NCBI RefSeq assembly: GCF_001677475.2
Contig: NZ_CP012497.1
Strand: one strand, 5' to 3'
Origin: Escherichia coli
GTDB taxonomy: Bacteria; Pseudomonadota; Gammaproteobacteria; Enterobacterales; Enterobacteriaceae
Length of the DNA: 64,000 bases
Shown here: in pieces, positions 39,855-45,368 of the stretch
How positions within the stretch are numbered: position 1 is the stretch's first letter
Layout of the letters: each line of letters begins with the position of its first letter
Notes under the pieces: model-generated
What the model was told of the DNA's origin: nothing
The model's input: only the letters and a program-made list of their open reading frames with translations
Databases searched by the model: none
Program-made: the position numbers and the translations under genes

Positions 39855-41128
39855 CAGTCGGTGATCTCCACAGGTTGCGTCGGCAGAATGAATGATGGAT
39901 GGCGCAGGCGGTTACGCTGCACGATTTCATCCCGTCGGCTTGTATCCCCATGCTCGCGCCATGCCAGCAATGCGGCAGATGTGGTTGTGGTCAGCGTCAC
40001 CTGCCGGGTTTCCGGCAGACGGGCGGCACGCTCGCGGGCATCCGTAATCACGGCCTGCCGTAAATCGCGCAGCGTTCGCCACAATGCCCGCTGGTTATTT
40101 TCCACTGCTGCCACCGCCTGCTCATGCAGTTCAGCCGCCAGCACGTCACCGGCAGATAATGCCGCATCACTGGTATCGAACGTCATCGAGGCCACGGCAT
40201 TTGCCTGTCCCAGCAGAGTTTCCAGCACAACCACCAGGCGGAAGTCGTCAATGTTCTTTTGCAGGCTGTCAGATACAGGCTGATAATCCGGTGACAGCCC
40301 GATAGCAAAGCCAGGTTCGCCGTCTGCCACGCTGCCTGGCTTCACTGTGATATCTTCCGGCAGTGCGCCGGTGGCAACCTGTCGGGAGCGTTCTCCGGCC
40401 CACTGGTTGCGTAATGTCGTGTAAACCGCCAGTGCTTCGGGTGCTTCCGTCACCAGATCAACCACGCCGTTAATGAACGAGGACAGCTCACTGACCAGAC
40501 GCCCCGGCGTGGCAATGATGGTTCCGGCCATCTCCTTAAAATGGTTCAGCCTGTCCATCCACTGATTCAGTGCTGCCGGTAACGTGGGCAGGTTAGCCAC
40601 AAGGTTTTCCATATCGGCCAGAAAGCTGTCGGCCATGTCACCCAGCCCGTCAGGTACACCGAACCAGTCGCCAGCATCAATAGCCGCTTTTACCGCATCA
40701 ATACCCGTCAGCACCTCCTGCTGCGTGTTATCCGCCGCAGACGGGAACAGGCGCTCGCCTGCCTCAAACACTTCAAAGGTGACATATGCAATGCCATCTT
40801 CCTCCGTGCTGAGGCGATGGGTGACCTTGCCAACCTGTACGGTCTGTATTCCGAACCACGGGTGGATAAGCTCACCGGGGCCGGGGGTATTGAGTGCATC
40901 TAAAAGGGCGTTTAAATCATCCTGGAAGTTTTTACCCAACAGCTTTGCGTTAATCTGCTGTTGCCCCGGAACGGCCCCGTTATCATCCGTCCAGGCGGTT
41001 TCACGCCGGGGATACGCACGGGGAATGGCACGACGGCCACCGGTGCCTTCCGTATCCACCAGAAAGAAGGGGACGCCACGAAACGAAGCGTCGCGCAGCC
41101 CGTCCCATTTGCCGTTGCTTGTTGTCAT
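39854..41128 (-). CDS. DNA circularisation protein N (gp43)-like
   Basis: 424-aa ORF directly downstream of the tape measure gene, Mu order. Confidence 0.6.
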   Translation of the reverse strand: MTTSNGKWDGLRDASFRGVPFFLVDTEGTGGRRAIPRAYPRRETAWTDDNGAVPGQQQINAKLLGKNFQDDLNALLDALNTPGPGELIHPWFGIQTVQVGKVTHRLSTEEDGIAYVTFEVFEAGERLFPSAADNTQQEVLTGIDAVKAAIDAGDWFGVPDGLGDMADSFLADMENLVANLPTLPAALNQWMDRLNHFKEMAGTIIATPGRLVSELSSFINGVVDLVTEAPEALAVYTTLRNQWAGERSRQVATGALPEDITVKPGSVADGEPGFAIGLSPDYQPVSDSLQKNIDDFRLVVVLETLLGQANAVASMTFDTSDAALSAGDVLAAELHEQAVAAVENNQRALWRTLRDLRQAVITDARERAARLPETRQVTLTTTTSAALLAWREHGDTSRRDEIVQRNRLRHPSFILPTQPVEITD

Positions 41129-42975
41129 TACCCTTGCTCCACGCTGGTGACGCCAGCCTGCGCACTGAGTCTGACGCCGGGTTGATCCACTCTGACACTT
41201 TTCACGCGGGCGTCACCTTCCACCACCACACGGATTTCCCCCTGCAACTGCTGCGGAAGGAAAGGATAATTCTGTGTGCCCTGCATACCTGCCCACGGTC
41301 GCGGGTCAGCAATGTTCTTGTCACCCAGCGAACTGAACCAGTCCGTTACCTTACGCCAGACGGACTCGAGCGCTTTCTGGTTGTCCTGACTTTGTTGCGC
41401 GAACTCGCGCTCCCACGGGCTGGCGCTGGGGTCAGCAGCCACAGATTTCGTGAGTGAGTCTGTTTCATCCGGCAGGGCGTATAGTGTTTCCAGACGCTCT
41501 TTTACAGCCATTGCCCCCAGCACAGGACCGAGGATTTTCCCTATAAAACGTCCCCGACCGTTACCTGAACCGCCGGAGTTTTCCGGTAACTCCGGGAGGT
41601 CAGGGAGATCCGGCAGACCACCGTCCTTACCCGGACCAAAGCTGCCCATATTGACCACATAAACAGGTATCACGCCGGAACCAAAAACGTCAGTAATGGC
41701 ACCGGGTATTCCTTTGCCTTTCCCTTTGGGATTCATGATGTCGTGGAGGGTTTTACCTAACTGGTACGTTTTTCTGATGGCGATAATGCCGCCCACAGCA
41801 ATCGCCATATATTTACCGACCTGCAACCAGTTCTGGACGGTATGCTGGTCCACGCTGTTGAGCGCATCCGCCAGCTCCTGAACGGGTTTTGCCAGTTGTC
41901 CTTCAGCAAAACGTTGCCATTCGTTATTCAGTGACTGTATTGCGGCATTAAAGCCTTCGGCATTGGTCTGTGCGGCCTTTTGCGTGGAACCCAGCTCAAT
42001 CGTGCCGTAAATCATTTGTTCCATCAGTTGCCGGTTTTCAGGGTTAAGCAGCGCCTTAATCCCCTGCATTCCGGTCAGATCAAACACATCCTGAAGTTTC
42101 AGCGGATCGTATTTGGCCCGTTTAAGGATTTCCATCATCAGCTCATAGGGCTTTTTGATGTCTTTTGTGCCTTTGACAAAAACGTCAATGCCGTTTTTTT
42201 TCAGGAACTCGATGTTCTTTTTGTCCGACAGGGAAGCATACATGGCCTGAATACTGGTTACCGTCTCATCAATGCTGCCTTTGTTTTTGGCGAACACCTG
42301 AGCAAATGCCCCCATCTGGGCAATGGCTTCCGGTCCCTGATCCTGAATGATGGAAAACAGTTTCGGGGCAGCGCGGGCAACATCGGCAACGCTAACAGAC
42401 CCCACTGCGAACTGCGAATACAGCCTGTCCATCATGTTATTGACCGCCTCAGCACCCCGGACGTTTTTTTCCCAGAACTGGGCCATCAGCCCGGCTGCAA
42501 CCTGTCCGTCAACACCGAACGCCTGCATCATCAACCCCATGTTGCGGAGGTTGTCCACCACATACTGATAATCACCGGTTTTCCCCAGAAGTTCGCTGGC
42601 CCCCTGACCAAGCGCAGAAGCATCAATACGAATATCTTTCTGGTTCGATACATCCCTGATTTTGTCGTGAAGCGTCTTTACCTGTTCAGTGGTTAACTGG
42701 GCATCCGTACCCATCCGGCGCATCTGCGCATCAAAATCGGCAACCTGTTTGATGGTAAGACTACTGCCAAGCCCGGCTATCATTGCCGTGTAGCGGTTAC
42801 CAAGCGTATCAAGGCCGCGTCCTGCGGCCTCCGTTGTGGCTTTGACAAGGCTCATAGCCTTCTGATGGTTCCGGGCGAACTGCGACATATTTGCGCCGTA
42901 CTGCCGGGCTTTGGCGGTCAGGTTCCCGGCAAGGTTGATCATGATTTCCGTGCTGAGACGGTTACCTGTTGCCAT
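41128..42975 (-). CDS. tail tape measure protein
   Basis: 615 aa; helical N-half, Gly-rich segment, downstream of the chaperone frameshift pair. Confidence 0.75.
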   Translation of the reverse strand: MATGNRLSTEIMINLAGNLTAKARQYGANMSQFARNHQKAMSLVKATTEAAGRGLDTLGNRYTAMIAGLGSSLTIKQVADFDAQMRRMGTDAQLTTEQVKTLHDKIRDVSNQKDIRIDASALGQGASELLGKTGDYQYVVDNLRNMGLMMQAFGVDGQVAAGLMAQFWEKNVRGAEAVNNMMDRLYSQFAVGSVSVADVARAAPKLFSIIQDQGPEAIAQMGAFAQVFAKNKGSIDETVTSIQAMYASLSDKKNIEFLKKNGIDVFVKGTKDIKKPYELMMEILKRAKYDPLKLQDVFDLTGMQGIKALLNPENRQLMEQMIYGTIELGSTQKAAQTNAEGFNAAIQSLNNEWQRFAEGQLAKPVQELADALNSVDQHTVQNWLQVGKYMAIAVGGIIAIRKTYQLGKTLHDIMNPKGKGKGIPGAITDVFGSGVIPVYVVNMGSFGPGKDGGLPDLPDLPELPENSGGSGNGRGRFIGKILGPVLGAMAVKERLETLYALPDETDSLTKSVAADPSASPWEREFAQQSQDNQKALESVWRKVTDWFSSLGDKNIADPRPWAGMQGTQNYPFLPQQLQGEIRVVVEGDARVKSVRVDQPGVRLSAQAGVTSVEQG

Positions 42976-43457
42976 GCTGTTTCTCCAGTTGCTTTATCAG
43001 GCGGAACAGCTGCCGCAGGGGCAGCTGTTCCAGGTACTGAATGCTGAATCTCGAAGACAGGTTAACCAGCAGGTTCATCAGTGCCGCCGCCAGCGGCATC
43101 AGTTCGCCCCCGCGTTGCCACCTCCTCAAGCATGTCATCCAGCGCAGCAGCTTTCGTGCTGATAAGCTCAAGGTCTGCGGGGTGGAGCATTCGCAACTGT
43201 TTCATGTCCAGCGGGCCGGGAATACTGCCGATGGCCGCAACCTGACGGCGCATCATCTCCAGCCCCATCAGCACTTCAGAGCAGTAGGCCACCGCCTTTC
43301 CGTTCCCGCCCATGACGACGCGTTCTGCGGCCAGTTGCGCATCAATCACATCACTGGCAGTCAGTTCGCGCAGCTTCACGGTTTTATGCAGGGTTTCATC
43401 TGCCGTGCCTTTGCCGGTCAGAAGCCCGTGTTTCAGTTCAAATTCCATCGCGGCCAT
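42962..43457 (-). CDS. tail assembly chaperone with overlapping frameshift extension
   Basis: 131-aa ORF 43062-43457 plus overlapping out-of-frame ORF 42962-43171, located between tail tube and tape measure genes. Confidence 0.5.
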
Positions 43458-43458
43458 G

Positions 43459-43815
43459 TCACACCTTCACGCATTTTTCACCGATAAAGTTTGCACTGAT
43501 GGTGCCGGAATCCTCGTCCAGCTCCGCCGGGTTATCCGTGGCGGACCCCGTCATCATGTAGTTCAGGCCGTTGTCGCCGTAGAACATCACCGTGACGTCT
43601 TCCCAGCTGCTGATTTCAATCACGTCCATATCCGCAGCCGCCGCAATGGTCACTTTGATGGACGGCGAGGCCATCTTGCTGGAGATGCCCCAGACCTTGC
43701 CGCCGCCCATATGCTGGGTGCGACTGAAGCCGCCTGGATTCAGCGTGGATTTCCCCTCGGTTTTAATTTCGCGGCCATTCACGCGAATGGTCGCCATGCC
43801 AAGAATTTTTGCCAT
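43459..43815 (-). CDS. tail tube protein (Mu M-like)
   Basis: 118-aa ORF directly downstream of the sheath gene. Confidence 0.6.
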   Translation of the reverse strand: MAKILGMATIRVNGREIKTEGKSTLNPGGFSRTQHMGGGKVWGISSKMASPSIKVTIAAAADMDVIEISSWEDVTVMFYGDNGLNYMMTGSATDNPAELDEDSGTISANFIGEKCVKV

Positions 43816-43823
43816 GCGGCCCC

Positions 43824-45368
43824 TTAAACTCTGAACTGAATCAGGCCTGCCAGCACACGCAGCTGGTTCACCAGATTCGGGTGGCAGATAAAGTTCAGGC
43901 GGTTTTTATCGCTGCTGTCGCGTGTCACCTGAAGCGTGTCCCTGTAATCGCTGAAGTTCTCCACAAGGCCTGCCGGGATAAGTTCGGTCTGGCAGATATC
44001 CAGCAGCTCTGCGGTGCACAGCTTCGGCGTCATCACCGGCTGCCCCGCATCCAGCGAGTCCAGCACGTCATCATCCGCCAGCTTGTGGCGCGGATAACGG
44101 TTCGAGAAACGGTTTTTGATGATGTAACGGATACGGCCCAGCGTGGCGGGCGACTGCACATCCAGGTACGACACATCCGCATCACCGTACTGATTAACCC
44201 GGTACATGGTGATTTCACGCTCTATGCAGACGTTATCCCCGGCGTCCACCATGTGCGTGGCAATGCCGTCATGCAGCAGCAGGTTACGTTCCGGCATATC
44301 CCAGCGAACATTACGCGCAGGCGGCAGAATGCCGGTCAGGACCAGCGTCTGAAGCGGACGCGCCGGGTCAATGGCAAGGTGATACGCTGCCGTTGCGCCG
44401 TATGACGCGGCCCACATCCACGCCGGATGCGGTGACAGGTTGGTGCCGATACAGCTAATCAGCCAGTCATTGCGGGTTTCACCAAACGTGCCTGTCTCGC
44501 CGTGCGTGCCACGAAACGCCGTCCATAGCTGCGCTTCCATCATCCTGAGCGGCCCCCAGCGGTTCAGCAGTTCATCACGCAGGGTGTTCAGGCTTTGCGT
44601 GTCGGTGAACGGGGCGATGATATCGGTAAACCACTCCGGGCCGATGGCCGCAACGGCGTCTGCCATTTCCGGTGTCCCGGTGCCGCCGGTAAACGCGGTT
44701 GCGGTCACCTTCACACCTGCCGGGAAGGCTTCACCGGTGTAGTAGTTCAGGCGAACGTCGGCACCGTTGCCGGTGACGCCGTGCCAGTTCACGGTCAGCT
44801 CCACGGTATCCGTGGCATCATCCTTCACCGCAGCGGCCACCTGCGTGGCAGGCTTTTTCGTCACCGCATCAGCAATGGCTTTTGCAATGTTTTCTTTGGT
44901 ATCCCCGGCGCTCACGCCCACCTGAACGGAGACACCGTTAATCAGTAGTGCCACCGTTCCGGCCTCTGTTGCTGTCCCCAGCACGGTCAGCGTGGCTTTT
45001 GCGGCAGCGCCAACAGGTGCGGCAACCGGCATTGCCCAGGTTTCCGTGTACGTGTTGGCACGACGCAGTATTTTGAGCATTTCAGCCAGCATAGACCCTT
45101 TGCCATAAAGCTGCTCTGCCTGGCTGTCACTGGTGATGCGGGTCAGTGACAGGGCGTCTGCGCTGCCGGACGATACCGCATGGCCCATGACCAGAATTTT
45201 TCGGCTTTGCGCGGATGCACTGTCCAGCGCCTGTGAATTGTCAATATCGATCACGACGAGCGGGACGCGGATATCATCAGGAATTGAACCCAGCGACATA
45301 GATTTACTTCCTCTTTCGTTTCTGATTTTTGGTTTCAGGGAGGGATGTTTCTGCCGGAACATCAGCAA
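43824..45368 (-). CDS. tail sheath protein (Mu L-like)
   Basis: About 490-514 aa; true start probably MSLGSIPDD near 45299. Confidence 0.75.
   Translation of the reverse strand: MLMFRQKHPSLKPKIRNERGSKSMSLGSIPDDIRVPLVVIDIDNSQALDSASAQSRKILVMGHAVSSGSADALSLTRITSDSQAEQLYGKGSMLAEMLKILRRANTYTETWAMPVAAPVGAAAKATLTVLGTATEAGTVALLINGVSVQVGVSAGDTKENIAKAIADAVTKKPATQVAAAVKDDATDTVELTVNWHGVTGNGADVRLNYYTGEAFPAGVKVTATAFTGGTGTPEMADAVAAIGPEWFTDIIAPFTDTQSLNTLRDELLNRWGPLRMMEAQLWTAFRGTHGETGTFGETRNDWLISCIGTNLSPHPAWMWAASYGATAAYHLAIDPARPLQTLVLTGILPPARNVRWDMPERNLLLHDGIATHMVDAGDNVCIEREITMYRVNQYGDADVSYLDVQSPATLGRIRYIIKNRFSNRYPRHKLADDDVLDSLDAGQPVMTPKLCTAELLDICQTELIPAGLVENFSDYRDTLQVTRDSSDKNRLNFICHPNLVNQLRVLAGLIQFRV

Follow-up and report, generated by a model that had tools for sequence, protein, structure and literature searches.

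Within the window, the 64-kb stretch of Escherichia coli DNA that we analysed, the locus flanked by the tail tube and tape measure genes very probably belongs to a Mu-like transposable prophage and is its tail assembly chaperone cassette of the G/GT type, in which a −2 slip would give rise to a fusion protein. As the original prediction held, the phenomenon is expected biology, and the Mu-type shift is already known. It is nevertheless missed by genome annotation, since RefSeq/PGAP records of the E. coli prophage do not annotate the frameshift product.

Layout of the chaperone cassette

The genes of the cassette are arranged as follows:

43459..43815, minus strand: tail tube gene, 118 aa (Pfam PF10618 Tail_tube, 4e-38)
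43062..43457, minus strand: G, gp41-like tail assembly chaperone with an ATG start and a zero-frame product of 131 aa
42962..43171, minus strand: second-frame ORF of 69 aa, with a TTG start as listed
41128..42975, minus strand: tape measure gene, 615 aa (phrog_973 tail length tape measure protein, 3e-126)

The tube gene is immediately upstream of G, with its stop 1 nt from the chaperone ATG, and the 131- and 69-aa ORFs share 110 nt (43062..43171), the stop codon of G being at 43064..43062. The second ORF fills the space between G and the start of the tape measure gene, whose ATG (42975) lies 11 nt before the stop codon of the second, or T, frame and whose ribosome binding site is likely the GGAG at 42986..42983. 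PGAP labels the upstream gene of relatives as 'phage tail tube protein' and, in 98%-identical E. coli prophages, names the downstream gene 'phage tail tape measure protein'. The G protein exceeds the 27-bit cutoff of the Pfam family Gp41_Mu (PF23746, 4.4e-37) over residues 8-118, a match that stops precisely at the slip site (residue 118), and it also matches Phage_TAC_7 (Pfam) and the tail assembly chaperone family phrog_508 (7e-37). The ORF list and the Pfam and phrog matches thus bear out the predicted overlap, between tube and tape measure genes, of a 131-aa chaperone ORF with a 69-aa ORF in another frame.

In relatives, the cassette is found within a complete Mu-like prophage, including genes for a transposase, a MuB-like ATPase, Gam, Mor, the gpT head protein, Com and Mom. 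This prophage is present in 48 out of 5426 complete E. coli genomes, in 45 cases at 95–99% identity. Relatives were collected by tblastn, by scans of IMG/VR and from E. coli genomes; when tblastn with Mu gp41 was run a second time, it retrieved the same 31 phage records, and a megablast of the tail region against a phage collection gave no match. A scan for promoters and terminators gave none on the gene strand, and the single match to Rfam, Erse sRNA, scored 12.3 bits vs a gathering score of 138.

The slip motif and the second reading frame

The offset between the two ORFs (43457 − 43171 = 286, or 1 mod 3) places the second one in the +1, or equivalently −2, frame. A −1 shift of the lambda G/GT type was rejected: we sought a canonical in-frame X XXY YYZ heptamer in G and found none, and the −1 frame is closed by stops at nt 357, 378, 381, 459 and 462, counted from the start of G. 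Instead of the slippery heptamer anticipated for the overlap, this contains the Mu-type sequence C GGG GGC GA. The G/GT-type frameshift cassette originally proposed is thus supported, on the evidence of the Mu slip sequence, the conservation of the frame and the switch in selection, and the original grounds for refuting it fall away. One correction applies: the shift is into the +1/−2 frame, so that the cassette is the Mu variant of the lambda G/GT arrangement. The elements involved are:

43104..43112, minus strand: slip site C GGG GGC GA, with zero-frame codons R116 CGG, G117 GGG and R118 CGA
42962..43108, minus strand: T segment, +1/−2-frame GGC GAA CTG ... AGG TAA, 48 aa plus stop
43457..43107 joined to 43108..42962, minus strand: GT fusion, predicted 165 aa (117 of G plus 48 of T)

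The suggested comparison with Mu gp41 revealed that the slip site is identical there, occupies the homologous position and is read in the same frame (L003 2849-2857). The octamer GGGGGCGA has a single occurrence in the window and, among about 200 related loci with protein identities as low as 41%, nearly all have it once and in frame (once per locus in the first 44 loci, and in frame in 79 + 71 further loci); a literature search for this octamer matched only unrelated papers. All relatives examined have the more general motif xGG GGG CGA close to the 3' end of G, either unchanged or differing by one base. The Arg codon preceding GGG is always xGG (CGG or AGG), even though CGG and AGG represent only 13 of the 64 Arg codons in the tail genes of the window, and thus the run of five G is itself conserved. 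CGA makes up 4 of these 64 codons. Eight relatives contain GAG GGG CGA TAG, with only four G, so that −2 re-pairing would be imperfect in them and a +1 slip equally plausible.

In every relative examined, no stop interrupts the +1/−2 frame between the slip motif and the start of the tape measure gene, whereas the −1 frame is closed. Arrangement, motif and T peptide are kept in about 30 diverged lineages, from Escherichia to Vibrio, Shewanella, Pasteurella and Alteromonadaceae, in agreement with the conservation originally attributed to the second ORF. The T part is 47–55 aa long in all lineages and has a conserved LPLR-x-L motif; here it matches phrog_38797 (3e-34) and stops 11 nt into the tape measure gene. 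Conservation of the T peptide starts at a G-G-D/E junction, upstream of the ATG at 43100..43098, and in BLASTP the alignment with the Mu fusion runs through the junction (38% identity, E 4e-25). As for the TTG 'start' of the 69-aa ORF, it is just a by-product of ORF listing. Ahead of the motif, the +1 frame is not conserved and, in some relatives (L005, Mu, Shewanella), is closed 3–6 codons before it. In Shewanella MuM16-2, this frame becomes open only 17 nt short of the G stop, confining the shift to the slip motif.

Purifying selection moves from frame 0 to frame +1 exactly at the motif. Upstream of it, pN/pS in frame 0 is 0.32–0.37; downstream, it is 0.41–0.62 in the T frame vs 1.9–3.4 in frame 0.

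RNA elements around the slip site

Three elements flank or follow the slip site:

43120..43127, minus strand: Shine-Dalgarno-like GAGGAGGT, candidate upstream stimulator of backward slippage
43082..43098, minus strand: proximal hairpin UGCCGCU-GGC-GGCGGCA, part of the MFE structure and starting 6 nt after the CGA codon
43003..43031, minus strand: distal perfect 12-bp hairpin GGAACAGCTGCC-cctgc-GGCAGCTGTTCC, in the T-only segment, 27 nt upstream of the tape measure ATG

The AGGAGG core of the Shine-Dalgarno (SD)-like element is 11 nt from the P-site GGG codon, and the anti-SD duplex energy of the element is −12.3 kcal/mol vs −2.5 for the gene background. Across 32 lineage representatives, the mean anti-SD energy is −7.0 vs −2.6, with a median rank of 0.04, and a GGAG/GAGG core is situated 11–15 nt upstream in 20 of 31 lineages.

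The proximal hairpin is a candidate downstream stimulator in this lineage. Its 5-bp core is invariant in 65/65 distinct sequences, fourfold degenerate sites included, with an observed pairing of 5.0/5 vs 3.22 after synonymous resampling. Variation affects one pair only (U-A/U-G/C-G), outright double substitution is absent and z is only −1.75; besides, the hairpin lies in the doubly coded overlap, and its invariant synonymous sites could be due in part to frame-0 coding. When the 45 nt following the motif were folded singly in 10 lineages, nothing comparable to the proximal hairpin was detected in the other lineages, and no common hairpin that could act as a family-wide downstream stimulator was found (z from −1.75 to +0.9).

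The distal hairpin, also predicted independently by RNAalifold, is paired in 98.1% of cells, and 5 of its 12 pairs show compensatory double changes among the 65 distinct sequences; observed pairing is 11.77/12 vs 9.31 after synonymous resampling. Outside the enteric subfamily, this hairpin is absent at the same position in Mu, Vibrio, Shewanella, Pasteurella and the Alteromonad phage. A long-range pairing between the G-stop region and the tape measure ribosome binding site, present in the MFE fold of the window, was dropped because it is missing from the consensus fold.

Compared with Mu, three features are particular to this lineage: a strong SD-like element (GAGGAGG, 11 nt upstream), the GC hairpin in the proximal position and the covarying distal hairpin. 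Mu is without the SD-like element and shows no comparable proximal hairpin in single-sequence folds, so these two elements are dispensable for the shift; it folds into a different long-range structure. The three features suggest a lineage-specific tuning. It is conceivable, if somewhat doubtful, that the enterobacterial Mu-like lineage acquired them as conserved cis-acting RNA elements missing in Mu, and that together they might fix the ratio of G to GT, or link mRNA stability or the translation of the tape measure gene to the frameshift. In that case, a bacterial −2 frameshift, which is a rare type of shift, would have a stimulatory architecture that can be dissected.

In E. coli dnaX, the −1 signal consists of an upstream Shine-Dalgarno-like element, a slippery site and a downstream hairpin. 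A similar three-part layout exists here, in which the SD-like element precedes the P-site codon by about 11 nt and is followed by the slip site and, 5–6 nt downstream, by the start of a hairpin, although dnaX differs in its slip sequence, in the size of the shift (−1 vs −2 here) and in the gene concerned, and the stimulatory role of the elements described here is that of candidates.

Proposed mechanism, alternatives and known systems

Most ribosomes would stay in frame and stop at 43064..43062, producing the 131-aa chaperone. A minority would slip 2 nt backwards with the glycyl-tRNA on GGG (43109..43107) of C GGG GGC GA, which would re-pair with the GGG two bases upstream. GGC GAA CTG ... would then be decoded in the +1/−2 frame up to 42964..42962, just inside the tape measure gene, and the product would be a 165-aa fusion with the junction ...VATRG-GELMPL... 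and the predicted tryptic junction peptide GGELMPLAAALMNLLVNLSSR. Both the occurrence of this slippage in the prophage and its efficiency are inferred. The rare zero-frame CGA would slow A-site decoding, and the upstream SD-like GAGGAGG and the proximal hairpin would stimulate the shift. By analogy with lambda, the G part of both products would bind the tape measure protein and the T part would recruit the tube protein, a fixed G:GT ratio being required for correct tail assembly.

The same frame would be reached by a +1 slip, since +1 and −2 are one frame, with the glycyl-tRNA moving forward from GGG to GGC as the rare A-site codon CGA awaits decoding; the protein would then have 164 aa, one Gly fewer (...ATRG-ELMPL...), and a predicted tryptic junction peptide GELMPLAAALMNLLVNLSSR. 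CGA is rare, a slow A-site codon is a classic trigger of +1 shifts, and the eight relatives with four G suit a +1 slip better than a −2 slip. Nonetheless, we consider the +1 slip unlikely and a −2 slip on the five-G run most likely, because the fifth G is kept through the xGG Arg codons, although superfluous for a +1 slip, and because the SD-like element is found at a spacing of 11–15 nt in most lineages. From work on dnaX and prfB, such long spacing favours backward over forward slippage. Additionally, the homologous site of Mu is annotated in GenBank as a verified −2 shift. A slip of RNA polymerase on the five-G run, adding two G or losing one, would also place G and T in one frame, in a minority of the mRNA, and would yield the same proteins as a −2 or +1 ribosomal slip, the protein sequence being identical for a −2 ribosomal slip and the insertion of two G. 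Productive transcriptional slippage, however, usually requires longer A or T runs, next to which five G are short, and it would leave unexplained the conserved CGA and the SD-like element at ribosomal spacing. Transcriptional slippage is known in bacteria (PMC5009743), yet we regard it as highly improbable at this site.

It is also very unlikely that the T ORF is translated alone from the ATG at 43100..43098, with the G run as ribosome binding site, into a separate 45-aa protein. PGAP calls precisely such a 'hypothetical protein' (WP_001127483.1) in some E. coli genomes, GGGGG is 7 nt upstream of this ATG, and phrog_38797 corresponds to the T ORF called separately by others. Against this, the start is not conserved, being ACG in three enteric relatives (L100, L103 and L104), and neither Mu nor the Stx-phage insert has a start among the seven T-frame codons that directly follow the motif, whereas the motif and the frame relationship are conserved regardless of start loss. 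Moreover, conservation of the T peptide begins 5' of the ATG, and the verified product of Mu is a fusion according to its GenBank annotation; we thus consider the 45-aa protein of some PGAP records as spurious. As for an open frame due to chance, or a fixed frameshift mutation in a functionless pseudogene, 13% of the 50-codon windows are stop-free in the +1 frame of the long ORFs of the window, and an open second frame would by itself be weak evidence; it is its conservation that exceeds chance. The probability of this explanation is negligible, given the conservation over about 30 diverged lineages and the purifying selection on the T frame.

Xu, Hendrix and Duda reportedly described in 2004 a −2 programmed frameshift in the gp41/Mu_56 tail assembly chaperone pair of Mu. 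This pair shares with our locus the Gp41_Mu family, the position between tube and tape measure genes, CGG GGG CGA in frame and the target frame. The G part shows 48% identity with Mu in the best tblastn segment (1e-15), and identity is 38% across the aligned fusions; the T part has 51 aa in Mu vs 48 aa here, with an LPL-x-R motif common to both, and the zero-frame tail past the motif has 13 aa here vs 6 aa in Mu. In GenBank AF083977, the Mu site is annotated as 'verified -2 translational frameshift in PMID 15469818' (Mu_56). The status of the Mu shift as verified is taken from this GenBank note and from secondary citations, and reviews concur.

Likewise, gpG/gpGT of lambda is an established tail chaperone pair, and the logic of its frameshift product serves here as an analogue (PMC5009743). 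The locus has in common with this pair, and with E/E+E' of P2, the gene position, the logic of a short product made at a fixed ratio to one extended at its C terminus, and the presumed function (PMC5009743). Two overlapping products are encoded between tube and tape measure in both cases, but lambda uses a −1 shift on an X XXY YYZ heptamer, whereas the heptamer is absent here and the −1 frame is blocked by stops; lambda G/GT is a functional analogue, and our locus is not a member of its class by type of shift.

The current understanding of tail assembly is unchanged by these results. For Mu-like phages, a simple rule of annotation could be to look for xGG GGG CGA close to where a Gp41_Mu gene ends (3'), and the comparative set provides specific, testable candidates for tuning of the shift, namely the conserved run of five G, the rare CGA, the SD-like element that is frequent upstream, and the hairpins specific to this lineage.

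Gene organization and reading frames of the chaperone locus

The original prediction placed a 131-aa chaperone ORF, overlapped by a 69-aa ORF in another frame, between the tail tube and tape measure genes, and this arrangement was confirmed as written by the ORF listing and by matches to Pfam and PHROG families. All the relevant genes, from the sheath to the tape measure, are on the minus strand:

45368..43824, minus: sheath ORF, 514 aa (ORF listing; Pfam PF04984/PF17482)
43815..43459, minus: tail tube ORF, 118 aa (ORF listing; Pfam PF10618, 4e-38)
43457..43062, minus: G, chaperone ORF, 131 aa (Pfam Gp41_Mu PF23746, 4.4e-37, residues 8-118)
43171..42962, minus: second ORF, 69 aa (ORF listing)
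42975..41128, minus: tape measure ORF, 615 aa (PHROG phrog_973, 3e-126)

The sheath ORF as listed starts with TTG at 45368; because 491 aa are annotated in 98%-identical relatives, the ATG at 45299 (MSLGSIP...) is probably where translation begins. Prophages with 95-99% identity to a 1-kb query spanning the tube and chaperone genes (42900..43900) were found in 45 complete E. coli genomes. In strain KFu019, the 35 kb around the locus correspond to a Mu-like transposable prophage that is complete and encodes a transposase, a MuB-like ATPase, Gam, Mor, the gpT head protein, baseplate proteins, Com and Mom.

The start of the second ORF lies 286 nt from the chaperone ATG, and it is thus in the +1 (equivalently, -2) frame. 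The -1 frame contains stops at nt 357, 378, 381, 459 and 462 from the start of G and there is no in-frame X XXY YYZ heptamer within G, which excludes a lambda-style -1 shift. Hence, the slippery heptamer anticipated in the overlap was not found; zero-frame codons 116-118 are instead CGG GGG CGA (43112..43104, minus), the slip site of phage Mu. The octamer GGGGGCGA occurs only once in both strands of the 64-kb window, at the slip site, although this is not significant by itself, with 2.25 occurrences expected by chance and at least one in 89/100 shuffles.

The proposed comparison with the Mu gp41 region was borne out, as the same nine bases appear there in the same frame (L003 2849-2857). GenBank AF083977 contains a joined CDS, Mu_56, with the note 'verified -2 translational frameshift in PMID 15469818; tail assembly chaperone frameshift product', and adding 2 to its span of 565 nt makes 189 codons, which fits -2. 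The Mu -2 shift is also cited in passages of a recoding review and of a phage genome paper. In BLASTP comparisons, the alignment of the fusion products from the window and from Mu crosses the junction and reaches residue 157. Together, these results support that the locus is an unannotated case of the known Mu-type (-2) chaperone frameshift; the predicted programmed shift yielding G and GT (the fusion of G with T, the segment read after the shift) is therefore supported, although as the Mu variant and not as the lambda (-1) one, and it is, as anticipated, an expected and already understood kind of feature.

Conservation of the slip site and of the shifted frame

The relatives compared were found in E. 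coli genomes, among GenBank phages and by means of three IMG/VR scans. The first 44 loci represent ten lineages, with protein identity as low as 41%: the window group, Klebsiella Kp4866-3, an IMG/VR group (~66% identity), Mu/SfMu, the Mu-like insert in Stx phages, Vibrio martha, Shewanella MuM16-2, Vibrio 1.028.O, Pasteurella Pmp9 and Alteromonadaceae B23. In all 44, the octamer containing the G run appears exactly once and the +1/-2 frame is open from this motif, ending 100-142 nt beyond the G stop and no more than ~20 nt from the tape measure start codon, while the -1 frame reaches the tape measure start in none. Several relatives have a +1-frame stop directly ahead of the motif and, in Shewanella, the open stretch of the +1 frame begins only 17 nt ahead of the G stop, indicating that the shift must occur at the motif.

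The second scan gave the in-frame octamer in 79/79 usable loci, and the third in 71/80. Eight of the exceptions (L172, L174, L175, L178, L183, L186, L197 and L199, at approximately nt 1228-1252) have GAG GGG CGA TAG, in which the run has just four G and a stop immediately follows CGA, and the remaining one has CGG GGG CGC (L140 nt 1228). All nine are informative variants rather than losses: their +1/-2 frame is still open, their T peptide can still be recognised, and the shift in them may be +1, or else -2 with imperfect re-pairing.

The second frame was also conserved in its pattern of substitution, as deduced from comparisons of the window with relatives whose proteins are 66-69% identical. 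Upstream of the motif, pN/pS was 0.32-0.37 in frame 0 and ~1 in frame +1; downstream, it was 1.9-3.4 in frame 0 and 0.41-0.62 in frame +1 (0.33-0.50 in the T-only part). The constrained reading frame thus switches exactly at the motif, and conservation rules out an origin by chance or as a pseudogene. In the modelled fusions, the T part measures 48-52 aa in the ten reference lineages, or 47-55 aa when all loci are included; the R-G-G-(D/E) junction is invariant and an LPLR-x-L motif is shared. Because the T peptide has a match among PHROG families (phrog_38797, of unknown function), it must already have been annotated by others as a stand-alone ORF.

Ribosomal slippage is not annotated by PGAP in E. 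coli RefSeq records of the prophage (L001 3445-3927; L002 3303-3440); depending on the genome, there is an apparent 86-nt gap or a 45-aa 'hypothetical protein', WP_001127483.1, which is really the T segment.

Direction and nature of the shift

Independent initiation of this 45-aa protein at ATG 43100, the start occasionally annotated by PGAP, is very improbable, because conservation extends to the motif and the junction but not to this ATG. Transcriptional slippage on the five G would yield identical protein products, but it is unlikely and would leave the ribosome-related features unexplained.

A +1 slip would reach the same frame as a -2 slip and sequence alone cannot decide between them, although there are three arguments for -2. 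GenBank records a -2 shift at the homologous site of Mu. Besides, the Arg codon before GGG is always CGG or AGG, keeping the five-G run though the first base varies; these two codons make up only 13/64 Arg codons in the tail genes of the window, and a +1 slip would not need their two extra G. Finally, there is a Shine-Dalgarno (SD)-like sequence upstream, at a spacing that favours backward slippage, as known for dnaX and prfB. In the A site, the zero-frame codon CGA is rare (4/64 Arg codons), whereas the shifted one, GGC, is the commonest Gly codon (56/124), which would fit kinetic competition.

Conserved elements flanking the slip site

The conserved flanking elements were not part of the original prediction and are the only part of the locus that might repay experiments. 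The SD-like sequence, GAGGAGGT, is at 43127..43120 (minus), with 11 nt from its AGGAGG core to the P-site codon (GGG), a spacing that resembles that of the dnaX frameshift stimulator. We surveyed the region 4-14 nt upstream of the G run in 32 lineage representatives (<75% nucleotide identity), one of them probably a spurious match; the best anti-SD duplex averaged -7.0 kcal/mol, versus -2.6 in equivalent windows of the same genes (median rank 0.04). A GGAG/GAGG core was present 11-15 nt before the P-site codon in 20/31 diverged lineages; Mu, unlike the window, does not have an SD-like sequence there.

Downstream, a GC-rich proximal hairpin is predicted at 43098..43082 (minus), starting 6 nt past CGA. 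Across the enteric subfamily (65 distinct sequences), its 5-bp core does not vary even at 4-fold degenerate sites, and clear double substitutions were absent. Pairing was 5.0/5, versus 3.22 (maximum 3.55) under synonymous resampling, for a site within the doubly coded overlap. Single-sequence folding did not detect a comparable hairpin in other lineages.

A distal hairpin with a perfect 12-bp stem is predicted at 43031..43003 (minus), inside the T-coding segment and 27 nt upstream of the tape measure start codon. This hairpin is restricted to the enteric subfamily. Among 65 distinct relatives, 98.1% of cells are paired, versus 20-75% in controls with the register slid by 1-3 columns, and five of the 12 pairs show compensatory double changes; one example is synonymous (CAG to CAA together with CTG to TTG) and another is the codon pair GAA/TTC to CAG/CTG. 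RNAalifold recovers it independently, and observed pairing (11.77/12, versus 9.31 under synonymous resampling) exceeds the level that coding for the peptide would demand. The sense strand carries G·U intermediates, which suggests that the structure forms in the RNA. At ~72 nt from the slip site it is too distant for a classical stimulator; it might act in mRNA stability or processing, or in controlling translation of the tape measure gene. Neither terminators nor promoters were found on the gene strand, and the single Rfam hit was far below threshold and not credible. In Mu, the T region (L003 2866-2970) has a different predicted long-range fold, with the G-stop region paired with that coding for LPLSRFFRH (z-score -3.4 to -3.7).
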